Notes under the pieces: model-generated
Told to the model about the DNA's origin: nothing
The model's database searches: none
What the model saw: the letters and a program-made list of their open reading frames with translations, nothing else
Origin: an archaeon
Lineage (GTDB): Archaea; Undinarchaeota; Undinarchaeia; Undinarchaeales; JBDRKL01
Length of the DNA: 64,000 nucleotides
Direction of reading: 5' to 3'
NCBI GenBank assembly: GCA_043814055.1
Contig: JBDRKL010000010.1
Location: 85,433-149,432 of the forward strand
In this document: one piece after another, positions 26,608-55,452 of the stretch
Position numbering within the stretch: position 1 is the stretch's first letter
How the letters are laid out: each line of letters opens with the position of its first letter
Position numbers and translations under genes: made by a program

Positions 26608-26730
26608 ATGAAATCACTTCACTACGCTTTCGCTTCGTTCAGTCACAATGAAACTTCAGAGAATATAAACAATAAAATTGCTGAAGCTTCATTGTGTTCA
26701 AAGCTGGTGAAGGAGGTGAAACTTTGAAAT
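26608..26730 (+). mobile_element. structured insertion between stranded ATGAAAT and new RBS/TTGAAAT start
   Basis: Hairpin 26644-26696 shared with tRNA-Lys intron; 26697-26730 shared with EF-2 leader. Confidence 0.65.
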
Positions 26731-50793: not shown

Positions 50794-51023
50794 GCCGATG
50801 TAGCTCAGCGGTTAGAGCGCCAGACTCATAAGTTCGCTTGTGAGTTATGACCCTTCGGGGAATGATAAGCGCGCTAAGACATCTGGAGGTCACGTGTTCA
50901 AAACAGCGGCAAATTCCGCTGGCAAATTGGGCCGCGTTCGGCTTCGCCGAAGCGACCCTGCTCGCATCCTGCGAGAAAGCCAAAAGCGAGTTTGCTGTTG
51001 AGAAATTCACGTCATCGGCACCA
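50794..51023 (+). tRNA. tRNA-Met(CAU), elongator, with introns at 37/38 (50831-50880) and 59/60 (50903-51006)
   Basis: GCCGATG/CATCGGC, CCAGA/TCTGG, ACGTG/CACGT; removing both inserts gives a normal cloverleaf. Confidence 0.88.
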
Positions 51024-53239: not shown

Positions 53240-53701
53240 TTACCCCCCTTTCACCCACATTAAAATAGCCCAGCCGAGTTTTGAGAAGATTAAGTAATTA
53301 AATAATATAGAGAGCATTGCAAACTTGACCAGGCGGAACCAGTTTGAGCCCATAAACATCCAGATTATGTTTGAGACAATGTTGTAGCCAATCACAATCA
53401 TCATTGAGTTGAGCAGGAAGTTCTTCGCGGTTATGTCAAAGAACGTTGCGGCGAAGAGCGTGCCTGCAAGAGTTATGCCCATAATGAACAATCCCTGGAT
53501 TTCATAAGGGAACAGGACGAACGAGATTATCAGGATTGAGATTGCGAAGAGGAAACCCCACAGCGGGCCGAATGCGTAGGTCAGAATCAGGCCGAATGAG
53601 AGCCAGATGCCGACGCCCTGCATCTCAAAGCGGCGCATCCAAAACTCAAGGAAGCCGCCAATCATCACGAGCCCGATGAGCGCGAGGAGTTGGTAAAACA
53701 T
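53240..53701 (-). CDS. multi-pass membrane protein
   Basis: About 6 hydrophobic helices, FGP.WG motif reminiscent of ECF S components. Confidence 0.7.
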   Translation of the reverse strand: MFYQLLALIGLVMIGGFLEFWMRRFEMQGVGIWLSFGLILTYAFGPLWGFLFAISILIISFVLFPYEIQGLFIMGITLAGTLFAATFFDITAKNFLLNSMMIVIGYNIVSNIIWMFMGSNWFRLVKFAMLSILFNYLIFSKLGWAILMWVKGG

Positions 53702-53781
53702 ACTTGGGAATACTTGGAAGGTGTATTTAAGTTTTGAGAAGAAGTTATATATTACTAAATAAATAGTGTTGAGTCTAACGT

Positions 53782-54004
53782 GGGCTCGTGGCTCAAGCTG
53801 GTAGAGCATCTGACTCTTAATCAGAGGGTTGAGGGTTCAAATCTCCGCCGCTGCGGACACAATGAAACGCCAGAGATGTAATAAAATTGCTGGCGATTCA
53901 TTGTGAGGATAGCAGGGGGCTTGGTGAAAACCAAGCATTCAGCCTTCGGCTGAAGCCCCCCTATAAAATGCAGCTTCGGACTGAAAATCCCTTCGGGCCC
54001 ACCA
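53782..54004 (+). tRNA. tRNA-Lys(CUU) with 146-nt T-loop intron at 59/60 (53842-53987)
   Basis: TCTGA-CTCTTAA-TCAGA; BHB TTCA-AA|T ... TGAA-AA|T; GAGGG/CCCTT; CCA. Confidence 0.88.
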
Positions 54005-54127
54005 ATCACAATATCGGGGCTTCGGCAACAGCCGAATGCCCTCGGCCTACAAACACGCAAAGCGTGTTGTACAACCCGCTGTCGCGGGTTCGTACCTCCG
54101 CGGCCAGGCGGAGCTTCGGGCCCACCA
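54005..54127 (+). mobile_element. hairpin array ending in a copy of the tRNA-Lys 3' end
   Basis: CTTCGGGCCCACCA at 54114-54127 identical to 53991-54004. Confidence 0.7.
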
Positions 54128-54162
54128 AAACCTTATAATAAACAATAGCTAACTTCATACTC

Positions 54163-55452
54163 ATGAACTGGAAAACCCTTGCAGAAACAGACCCTGAAAT
54201 TTTGAAAGCGCTGAACGGCGAAGTCACTAGGGAGAACGAGGGGCTTGAGCTTATCCCGTCGGAGAATTACATCAGCAAGGCAGTGATGACCGCGATGGGC
54301 TCGATTCTTAACAACAAATATTCAGAGGGCTACCCAGGCAAGCGCTACTACGGCGGACAGGAATTCACGGACATTGTAGAAAACCTTGCGATTGACAGGG
54401 CAAAGAAACTCTTCGGCGCTGAGCACGCAAATGTCCAGCCTTACTCAGGAAGCCCAGCGAACCTCGCGGCTTACCTCGCGGTTATGAAACTAGGGGACAC
54501 GCTGATGGGCATGGCGCTTCCGATGGGCGGACACTTGACACACGGTCACTCAGTGAGCGCAACAGGCAAATTGTTCAAAGCAGTGCAATATGGAGTTGAT
54601 GAAGAAACCCATTTGATTGACTACGATGCAGTTAGGAAACTTGCCCAAGAGCACAAGCCGCAGGTGATTGTCTCAGGCGCAACAGCGTATCCAAGAGAAT
54701 ATGATTTCAAGGAGTTCCACGCCATAGCTGAAGAAGTTGGAGCTTACTCAATGGTTGACATGGCGCACATCGCCGGCCTAATCGCAGCTGACGCGCACCA
54801 GAGTCCTTTCCCATTCACAGACATCATCACGACCACGACGCACAAGACACTGCGCGGGCCGAGAGGGGGGATGATACTTTGTAAACAGGAAGACCGATTG
54901 AAGGAGAAGTATCACGCAGAGTCCAAGTGGAACCTCGCAGAGCTGATTGACCGCTCAATATTCCCAGGACTTCAAGGCGGGCCACACGAGCACACAATCG
55001 CTGGGCTCGCAGTTGCGTTGCTTGAGGACTCCCAGCCCGAGTTCAAGAACTACGGCAAGCAAGTTGTGAAGAACGCGAAACACCTTGCTGAGAAATTAAT
55101 GGACTTTGGATTTGAGCTAATCACTGGCGGAACAGACAATCACTTGATTTTAATTGACCTCACGAACAAAGGCATTGCCGGCGGGGAGGCAGAGGCTGCG
55201 CTGGACAAGGCAGGCATCACAGTGAACAAGAACACAGTGCCTTACGACAAGCGCAAGCCATTTGACCCGTCGGGAATCCGGCTCGGAACTCCAGCACTCA
55301 CAACGCGCGGGATGAAAGAAGGCGAGATGGAGCAGGTCGCTGAGTTTATGAACAAGGCGATTGCAAATGTTAAAGATGAGTCTGCACTCGGCAAGATTAA
55401 GGCAGAAGTTAAAGAGTTGTGTGACAAGTTCCCGTTGTATGAATTGTATTAG
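54163..55452 (+). CDS. glyA: serine hydroxymethyltransferase (bacterial-like)
   Basis: LIPSEN, EGYPGKRYYGG, TTTTHKTLRGPRGG, SGIRLGTPA. Confidence 0.97.
   Translation: MNWKTLAETDPEILKALNGEVTRENEGLELIPSENYISKAVMTAMGSILNNKYSEGYPGKRYYGGQEFTDIVENLAIDRAKKLFGAEHANVQPYSGSPANLAAYLAVMKLGDTLMGMALPMGGHLTHGHSVSATGKLFKAVQYGVDEETHLIDYDAVRKLAQEHKPQVIVSGATAYPREYDFKEFHAIAEEVGAYSMVDMAHIAGLIAADAHQSPFPFTDIITTTTHKTLRGPRGGMILCKQEDRLKEKYHAESKWNLAELIDRSIFPGLQGGPHEHTIAGLAVALLEDSQPEFKNYGKQVVKNAKHLAEKLMDFGFELITGGTDNHLILIDLTNKGIAGGEAEAALDKAGITVNKNTVPYDKRKPFDPSGIRLGTPALTTRGMKEGEMEQVAEFMNKAIANVKDESALGKIKAEVKELCDKFPLYELY

Follow-up and report, generated by a model that had tools for sequence, protein, structure and literature searches.

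The tRNA-Lys(CUU) gene of an archaeon of the Undinarchaeota is interrupted in its T-loop, at position 59/60, by a 146-nt intron of a known kind and unusual length. The gene lies in a stretch of 64,000 nt, hereafter the window (positions 85,433 to 149,432 of contig JBDRKL010000010.1, assembly GCA_043814055.1; G000:C10:85433-149432 in our numbering of genomes, G, and contigs, C). The assembly comprises 979,685 bp in 14 contigs, has about 46% G+C and is estimated to be 82% complete; the genome is archaeal, and EndA, RtcB and many intron-bearing tRNA genes were detected in it. We established directly the structure of the gene, the splice motif, the paralogy of the intron with a second one, the insertion within it, the repeat families to which its parts belong and the presence of the enzyme genes. 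These observations lead us to conclude, with good though not complete confidence, that the intron is real and probably spliced; and it is likely that the locus is a working tRNA-Lys(CUU) gene whose intron is removed enzymatically, was copied between two tRNAs and was lengthened by a hairpin. Coordinates of all features are collected in Table 1.

The tRNA that starts at 53782 has the anticodon arm of tRNA-Lys(CUU), TCTGA-CTCTTAA-TCAGA. After GAGGG and TTCAAA it gives way to 146 nt of non-tRNA sequence, and it then resumes as T-CCCTT-CGGGCCC-A-CCA. Rfam returned a weak tRNA match to the first 72 nt (53782-53853; 34 bits against a cut-off of 29), and ARAGORN called no tRNA at the locus, either in a run on the window or in a genome-wide run in intron mode, which covers anticodon-loop introns only. 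We scanned both strands of the genome for bulge-helix-bulge (BHB) motifs; a candidate needed two 3-nt bulges on either side of a helix of 4 bp, at least 3 bp of outer helix, at least 3 bp (or 4 of 5) of inner helix, and an intron of 12-350 nt. The 70,384 candidate excisions were spliced in silico, and ARAGORN then made 19 tRNA calls that spanned a junction. Most of these were already known canonical introns or false excisions bordering intact tRNAs, and one was tRNA-Lys(ctt), obtained on removing C10:139274-139419, the 146 nt at window 53842-53987. The original prediction of a 146-nt T-loop intron at 59/60 is thereby borne out: its excision restores a tRNA that ARAGORN accepts, with exons that match their orthologues. 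The intron lies at gene position 60, which is the standard 59/60 because the D-loop has one extra base, and the predicted junction 53841|53988 joins ...TTCAAA to TCCCTTCGGGCCCACCA.

Comparison with relatives gives the same boundaries. The spliced T-arm and acceptor strand, GAGGG-TTCAAAT-CCCTT-CGGGCCC-A-CCA, is identical to that of the uninterrupted orthologues in three genomes of the sister family (G006, G010 and G002), with which exon 1 shares 89% identity over 62 nt. In an alignment with uninterrupted Lys(CUU) genes from six relatives, the sole gap was exactly 53842-53987. An exact 24-nt pattern across the 3' splice site and exon 2 had no match in metagenome contigs, and a search for sequencing runs matching window 53600-54400 listed none.

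The insert is bounded by a BHB. The outer helix is the T-stem (53831-35 with 53989-93; 5 bp, one G·U), the central helix is a perfect pairing of UUCA (53836-39) with UGAA (53982-85), and AAU is bulged twice, at 53840-42 and 53986-88, on opposite strands. The inner helix is built of UCCG/CGGA and GCUGC/GCAGC around a 2x2 loop (4+5 bp). The perfect TTCA/TGAA helix and the 3-nt bulges had been part of the original prediction and stand as described; a C53843·C53981 mismatch beside the 5' bulge, before the inner helix, had gone unmentioned. Because of this mismatch the 5' site is slightly relaxed, and we conclude from the predicted pairing that the intron has the hBHBh' (helix, bulge-helix-bulge, helix) form in a slightly relaxed version. 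Archaeal BHB motifs are cut after the second base of the bulge, so exon 1 should end at 53841 and exon 2 start at 53988, which sets the intron at 59/60. AAATC is repeated at both junctions and the letters would therefore permit a cut anywhere from 57/58 to 61/62; only BHB geometry places it at 59/60. A fold constrained to contain the BHB has an energy of -94.3 kcal/mol, as against -94.7 for the minimum free energy (MFE) fold, and the four central pairs are the only difference between them. The fold of the whole precursor has a z-score of -5.16 relative to shuffled sequences, and the 146-nt intron alone folds at -65.3 kcal/mol.

A BLAST search of the Lys locus against its own genome revealed that C12:115343-115466 is a second copy, 96% identical along a 27-nt stretch and 88% along one of 100 nt, exon 2 included. 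It belongs to tRNA-Arg(UCG) (C12:115217-115466), a gene interrupted three times, once each in D-loop, anticodon loop and T-loop. The T-loop intron of this gene (C12:115354-115449, 96 nt) occupies the same site as that of tRNA-Lys and has identical BHB bases, the C·C mismatch included; it also has the same inner helix, plus one base pair. Taken alone, the two introns are 86.7% identical over 83 nt and align end to end with a single 49-nt gap. They form a cross-isotype family, as defined by at least 80% identity at the same position in different isotypes of one genome. Also identical in both is TATAAAAT, a good match to an archaeal TATA box (window 53962-53969; C12:115424-115431, hand-counted) that precedes the 3' splice site by about 20 nt and could be either a chance A/T-rich linker or an internal promoter.

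The T-stems of the two genes suggest in which direction the segment was copied. GAGGG...CCCTT is common to the genome's own Arg(UCG), its own Lys(CUU) and the Lys(CUU) genes of the sister family. A search pattern for Arg(UCG), which matches only genes that run without a break from anticodon loop to T-loop base 61, found 8 genes in 16 relatives; all 8 were intron-free, and their T-stems were GGGGG, GCGGG or AGGGG, never GAGGG. The Lys-type T-arm that the Arg gene has today suggests copying from Lys to Arg, and on balance we favor a history in which the T-arm-plus-intron segment moved from Lys to Arg and a hairpin then entered the Lys copy.

This hairpin, a near-perfect palindrome of 48 nt, fills the 49-nt gap in the Lys/Arg alignment. 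Five further copies lie in the genome (C12:9100; C10:26419, minus strand; C11:6858; C10:112076, which is window 26644; and C4:80970, minus strand), making six on four contigs, with terminal inverted repeats. Their flanks, those of the intron copy included, are of three different contexts (two besides the intron), and compensatory changes have preserved the stems (CGCCAG/CTGGCG, CTCCAG/CTGGAG, CTTCAG/CTGAAG). In the predicted structure the hairpin occupies an internal loop, with the inner BHB helix on one side and on the other a three-way element that both introns share, and leaves the splice determinants intact. Because the gap holds a palindrome that exists as a dispersed repeat, the Arg intron can be taken as the empty site and the Lys intron as the filled one. 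The simplest reading is that a mobile hairpin inserted into an existing intron of about 97 nt and brought it to 146 nt; the target-site duplication at the insertion is at most 1-2 nt. Two earlier proposals, that the intron contains the hairpin seen at 26644 and that it grew by insertion of an element, agree with this result: window 26644-26696 matches 53858-53905, and the single gap between filled and empty intron is a dispersed repeat.

Comparison of two sequences cannot polarize an indel, and palindromes are prone to deletion by replication slippage, so we also considered the opposite course: an ancestral form of 146 nt, from which the Arg(UCG) intron of 96 nt was derived when the hairpin was precisely lost. 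Such a deletion, however, would need to have taken out exactly the 48-nt unit. The missing block is, to within 1 nt, a repeat in its own right, with terminal inverted repeats and two unrelated flank contexts, as insertion predicts, and we regard shrinkage as improbable. As to the means of insertion into the Lys intron, mobilization of IS200/IS605 type was considered and rejected: the 82%-complete assembly gave no match to a Y1 transposase (Y1_Tnp), and TnpB-type matches stayed below the cut-off.

A second repeat, a bulged hairpin module of 22 nt, forms part of the three-way element. Its motif, GC-R-TTC-N-GC / loop / GC-N'-GA-(A or C)-GC, describes an 8-bp stem with a bulged purine and has 15 copies in the genome, as against 0 in each of 20 block-shuffled genomes. 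All five sites that had been listed as relatives of one another were recovered by this one motif (32047-67, 49914-34, 50934-53, 53935-56 and, inverted, 54019-39). The module of the Lys intron recurs unchanged over 23 nt at C10:28968-28990, and 39 nt separate this copy from the tRNA-Ser(CGA) 3' end; compared with that of the Arg intron, the Lys module differs by one fully compensatory change of an A-U to a C-G pair and has a different loop. Twelve of the 15 copies are at tRNA genes, 5 inside them and 7 within 189 nt, although tRNA genes with 200 nt on either side make up 2.3% of the genome (distances were taken from 40 ARAGORN tRNA calls, some of them doubtful, and 4 hand-annotated genes). Orientation follows position: all five intron copies are sense to their tRNA and all six 3'-flank copies are opposite, while the only 5'-flank copy, 30 nt upstream of tRNA-Tyr, is sense. 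Several copies, in their own orientation, have a TATA-like run behind them, for instance CTCTATAA or CCCCCTATAAAA.

Directly 3' of tRNA-Lys, such an inverted module is held in a cassette of 109 nt. Behind this cassette stands an exact 14-nt copy of the tRNA 3' end, CTTCGGGCCCACCA, at 54114-54127, which repeats 53991-54004. Cassette and repeat together have the look of an element that inserted at the end of the tRNA and duplicated its target. Cassettes with the bulged module were also seen between protein genes (G000:C7:14450-14870 and C7:33700-34120), where they are flanked by direct repeats of the gene junction of about 25-29 nt, for example TGCGCAAAGAATCAGAGCAGTTTGAGGAG twice. In a genome of another order, a 19-nt copy of the 3' end, ATCCCTTTAGGCCCATTCT, lies about 85 nt downstream of an intron-free tRNA-Lys(CUU) (L030, G016:C2), a scar like that of the window.

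These regularities raise the question of whether the intron is kept because it does something, as a structured or circular RNA, as a platform of hairpins for protein binding, or as an internal promoter (TATAAAAT, 53962-53969). The strong fold of its 146 nt (-65.3 kcal/mol) would suit such a role, as would the compensatory pair that preserves the module hairpin between the paralogues, the concentration of the module at tRNA genes (12/15) with its strict orientation pattern, and the TATA-like run identical in both introns. We nevertheless give a function little credence. No Rfam family was found within the intron at gathering thresholds, no pair of C and D boxes was seen by eye (the only CUGA belongs to the BHB), and relatives manage without the intron. 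Moreover, modules are found in either orientation and also away from transcribed tRNAs, and DNA-level repeats therefore fit better than a dedicated RNA. Two specific candidates were set aside: a group I or other ribozyme, no Rfam family reaching the gathering score inside the intron, and a C/D-box guide RNA, no C box being seen by eye.

We next consider the enzymes that would remove the intron. The genome has one EndA gene (C6:30516-31070, minus strand; L021:1474-2007), whose 177-aa product scores 110.3 and 69.3 bits against the two Pfam domains; no paralogue was found among 7,901 six-frame open reading frames of the genome. Across the order, a Pfam search for EndA gave exactly one match in 11 of 13 genomes and none in 2. 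The protein is collinear over its full length with Methanocaldococcus jannaschii EndA 1a79 (127.9 bits), a match that suggests assembly as an alpha4 homotetramer. Its Y113, H123 and K154 align with Y236, H251 and K282 of the EndA of ARMAN-2, for which Tyr, His and Lys are named as the catalytic triad in the text cited (PMC3488258). Loops of EndA, present as inserts in Aeropyrum pernix and ARMAN-2, have been linked to the cleavage of relaxed motifs in the cited parts of Kaneta et al. and Hirata et al. (PMC5829648, PMC3488258). In pairwise alignments with this EndA, no such insert, be it L1 (the Crenarchaea-specific loop, CSL), L2 (the ARMAN-specific loop, ASL) or L3, lies by the active site. 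The architecture of EndA had been proposed as a check on the intron; what it revealed is a single gene, collinear with that of M. jannaschii, that lacks the inserts of broad specificity. At the position of the A. pernix insert, the loop is 2 residues longer here than in M. jannaschii and carries a Lys, which is in the same place in 2 of 4 usable relatives and one residue earlier in the other 2 (the G009 row, a wrongly chosen open reading frame, was disregarded). The EndA of the order is about 180 aa long, apparently single, and without inserts of CSL, ASL or L3 type; this genome has D-loop, T-loop and triple introns. RtcB is present (C4:82918-84204, 558 bits).

With the Lys intron (146 nt), four T-loop introns at 59/60 were found in the genome, the others being those of Met (about 104 nt), Arg(UCG) (96 nt) and Gly(CCC) (21 nt), so that processing of this site must be routine for the cell. 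The intron of tRNA-Gly(CCC) (G000:C5:11221-11344) has a strict BHB and accompanies a 20-nt intron after the anticodon loop; ARAGORN called the partly spliced form Phe(aaa). tRNA-Met(CAU) likewise has a second intervening sequence after its anticodon loop. The BHB of its T-loop intron has a canonical 5' half (UUCA, AAA, CAGC/GCUG) and a 5-nt 3' bulge, AAAUU, because of which our strict scan passed it over. Its motif is clearly relaxed, and a plain EndA would have to cut it. A filter for T-loop introns gave 389 rows, mostly spurious, in its loose form and 18 rows, with 3 real tRNA ends, in its stricter form; tRNA-Pro(UGG) (C12:132988-133084) has a contiguous T-loop, in which no intron was found. 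Either near-canonical geometry suffices for an EndA of the plain alpha4 type, or something is missing from the assemblies.

The distribution of the intron in the phylum bears on its origin. A pattern running from the D-stem through the variable loop of tRNA-Lys(CUU) matched 11 of 17 phylum genomes, this one included (one further match, in G002, L040, was left out of the 11); it is silent on the T-loop and so does not bias the intron count. In 9 of the 11 genes the T-loop is uninterrupted, three of them in other orders (G015, G016, G014) and six in this order (G007, G003, G010, G006, G002, G005). The gene of G005 (L035, G005:C73) has a 33-nt insert in the D-loop. G006 keeps the Met-Thr-Lys gene order of the window, with an intron-free Lys gene. 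In another family of the same order, G001 (L036, G001:C21; 98% complete) also has an intron at 59/60 of its Lys(CUU) gene; it measures 35 nt, and its central helix is imperfect. By eye it shares nothing beyond splice-site bases with the 146-nt Lys intron, and homology of the two was considered and rejected. Intron turnover at the Lys(CUU) gene is rapid within the order. Against 40 relatives, among which there was no genome of the same family or genus, the intron sequence found nothing beyond an 18-nt chance match. The phylum comparison thus supports gain of the intron, which had been proposed together with presence and absence in relatives as its test: the uninterrupted genes include those of three other-order genomes and the syntenic one of G006.

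Overall, we propose the following course of events. In the precursor, UUCA of the T-loop would pair with UGAA near the 3' end of the intron, and the T-stem on one side and the intron-internal helix on the other would complete a BHB with two AAU bulges. The single EndA would cut both bulges, and RtcB would join the exons and probably circularize the intron. As to its history, the intron would have been gained within this order; intron and T-arm would then have been copied between Lys(CUU) and Arg(UCG), most likely from Lys to Arg; and finally the 48-nt hairpin would have entered the internal loop of the Lys copy, extending it from about 97 to 146 nt with the splice motif untouched.

Several points weigh against this account. 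Splicing and the cut sites are predicted from sequence alone, and we infer the order and direction of events in the same way. The C·C mismatch leaves the 5' side of the motif not strictly canonical. The 82%-complete assembly could lack another Lys(CUU) gene or another subunit of EndA, and tRNA-Lys(UUU), which is present in the genome, might cover AAG codons, so that Lys(CUU) need not be essential. In pairwise alignments, EndA has a gap at the 9-residue A. pernix insert and a Tyr-His spacing equal to that of M. jannaschii, 5 residues shorter than in ARMAN-2. The direction from Lys to Arg hangs on a single T-stem base, and 8 of the 16 relatives are uninformative for Arg(UCG), since the pattern was restricted to intron-free stretches. 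Finally, the intron of G001 stands at the same site, and there may have been a single older gain followed by turnover of content, instead of a gain in this lineage.

Some of these points would equally suit a pseudogene. A composite repeat would then have killed tRNA-Lys(CUU), AAG would be read by Lys(UUU) or by an unassembled copy, and the BHB-like pairing would be a by-product of the T-loop. The predicted nature of the splicing, the incomplete assembly, the presence of tRNA-Lys(UUU) and the mismatch that weakens the 5' site all leave room for this, and the insert is indeed built of repeats that are also found outside introns. Even so, a pseudogene strikes us as unlikely. Neither exon is damaged, and T-arm and 3' end match functional-looking orthologues base for base; UGAA-AAU stands at the exact BHB distance from the T-stem, and the inner helix is kept in two paralogues. 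Three other tRNAs have introns at 59/60, several of them in the only gene found for their anticodon, and the hairpin entered an internal loop, with all BHB elements intact. An intact second tRNA-Lys(CUU) gene, which had been named as the observation that would mark this one as a pseudogene, was not found in the assembly by ARAGORN, the spliced-candidate run or the pattern search.

A broader proposal can be made, which we hold only tentatively. The hairpin cassettes at tRNA loci might be vehicles of intron gain, through a DNA-level integration system that would place mosaics of hairpins at tRNA genes and leave target duplications of 14-30 nt where genes end. For those that landed in a T-loop, the cassette ends and the duplicated AAAUC could fold with that loop into a BHB that an EndA of the plain alpha4 type tolerates, and the Lys, Arg, Met and Gly introns would be domesticated insertions of one mobile family. 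If true, the birth of archaeal tRNA introns would be in progress here, with an EndA that lacks the loops considered a requirement where tRNA sets are heavily disrupted.

Table 1. The interrupted tRNA-Lys(CUU) gene, the parts of its intron and related features (window coordinates)
Feature	Position	Strand	Composition and basis
tRNA-Met(CAU) T-loop (59/60) intron, about 104 nt	50903..51006	+	gene 50794-51023; module at 50934-50953; hand-read
Copy of the 48-nt hairpin outside any tRNA ("26644 hairpin")	26644..26696	+	79% identity; alignment
Candidate archaeal TATA box TTATATAT	53745..53752	+	about 30 nt upstream of the tRNA 5' end; putative promoter, from position
tRNA-Lys(CUU) exon 1	53782..53841	+	acceptor 5' strand, D-arm, anticodon arm (CTCTTAA loop), variable loop, T-stem GAGGG, T-loop bases 54-59 (TTCAAA)
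5' half of BHB	53836..53842	+	UUCA and bulge AAU; predicted cut after 53841; same bases in the Arg(UCG) paralogue
Intron, 146 nt, position 59/60, bounded by BHB	53842..53987	+	excision restores tRNA-Lys; alignment gap; constrained fold
Inner helix, 5' strand (UCCG, CC loop, GCUGC)	53844..53854	+	pairs with 53970-53980; in MFE and constrained folds
Near-perfect palindromic hairpin, 48 nt, CACAATGAAACGCCAG...CTGGCGATTCATTGTG	53858..53905	+	fills the 49-nt gap of the Lys/Arg alignment; absent from the Arg(UCG) intron
Inner three-way element common to the Lys and Arg introns	53915..53961	+	GGGGG, hairpin CTTGG-TGAAAA-CCAAG, bulged hairpin module, CCCCC; folds and alignment
Bulged hairpin module, 22 nt, GCATTCAGC-CTTCG-GCTGAAGC	53935..53956	+	motif scan; in the Lys intron
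3' half of BHB	53970..53988	+	GCAGC-UU-CGGA, unpaired C53981, UGAA (53982-85), bulge AAU; predicted cut after 53987
tRNA-Lys(CUU) exon 2	53988..54004	+	T-loop base 60, T-stem CCCTT, acceptor CGGGCCC, discriminator A, encoded CCA
Multi-hairpin cassette directly 3' of tRNA-Lys	54005..54113	+	109 nt, three or four hairpins; holds inverted module 54019-54039

The tRNA gene is adjoined by glyA (serine hydroxymethyltransferase; window 54163-55452), which is not syntenic with Lys(CUU) in relatives. The best matches of glyA, at 56-63% identity, are in Methanosarcinales and bacterial genomes (80 loci kept), and horizontal acquisition is possible.

As a class, the Lys intron is ordinary, and comparison with known systems puts it in context. 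Cross-isotype "transposed" introns of the Thermoproteales were reportedly described by Fujishima et al. in 2010. Similar introns in tRNAs of different identity are presented as a hallmark of "intron transposition" in that group in the section cited of a review (PMC4090602), and cross-isotype families account for 28.3% of Thermoproteales intervening sequences in the figures quoted from 10.64898/2026.10.13.758758. The Lys(CUU) and Arg(UCG) introns are like these families in being near-identical (86.7-96% by segment) and at the same position across isotypes; they are unlike them in lineage, and one copy has here since been enlarged by insertion of a repeat. Because the shared block reaches into the T-arm exon, recombination or conversion of a T-arm-plus-intron segment is suggested, rather than movement of the intron alone.

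The repeats themselves recall the palindromic repeats of prokaryotes, such as repetitive extragenic palindromic elements and bacterial interspersed mosaic elements (REP/BIME) and miniature inverted-repeat transposable elements (MITEs). Like these, the 48-nt and 22-nt hairpins are short, dispersed, palindromic and non-coding, with compensated stems and an arrangement in mosaic cassettes. Unlike REP elements and MITEs, they go with no clear target-site duplication in the intron and with no Y1 transposase or above-cut-off TnpB in the assembly, and the small module clusters strongly at tRNA genes and their introns.

Elements that integrate into archaeal tRNA genes leave partial duplications, and a model from Caldiarchaeum links integration to intron gain, according to the passages cited from PMC3293823. 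The exact 14-nt repeat of the tRNA-Lys 3' end behind the 109-nt cassette resembles such an integration scar, although here 109 nt of hairpins without a recombinase gene stand in place of a 1.8-kb recombinase-bearing element, and scar and T-loop intron are linked here only by the shared hairpin module. A 2026 census of Asgard tRNA genes, in the part cited, gives no general route by which such introns arrive and treats the question as still open (10.64898/2026.10.13.758758). In our literature search, the titles and abstracts of the matches listed held nothing on repeat-derived archaeal tRNA introns or on tRNA introns of Undinarchaeota. What is new here is the length of the intron, the filled and empty sites for a mobile hairpin within it, the modules it shares with scar-flanked cassettes, and the plain EndA. 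One genome thus offers a concrete, datable series of events, namely an intron shared across tRNA identities, a hairpin site filled in one copy and empty in the other, and modules that recur in tRNA-end cassettes. The locus makes intron gain by mobile DNA testable and is a useful natural experiment on the spread and growth of archaeal tRNA introns.

The closest parallel for the splice site is ARMAN-2 (Ca. Micrarchaeum), whose pre-tRNA-Cys has a 13-nt intron at 59/60 that is cleaved in vitro, as stated in the portion cited of PMC3239211. Its pre-tRNA-Cys(GCA) and pre-tRNA-Pro(GGG) share with our locus the T-loop site and a BHB formed by pairing of the T-loop with the 3' end of the intron (PMC3239211); removal by EndA and a ligase, predicted here, is also shared, as is the setting of a small-genome archaeon with many disrupted tRNA genes. 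Two differences stand out. The Cys intron of ARMAN-2 has 13 nt, whereas the Lys intron has 146 nt with nested repeats. In addition, ARMAN-2 has a three-unit EndA of epsilon2 type with a specific loop, whereas the only EndA found here is a plain, loop-less protein of 177 aa, apparently of the alpha4 type. This second difference poses a question of enzymology, for D-loop, T-loop and triple introns here accompany an EndA, the only one detectable, that lacks the inserts tied to such sets.

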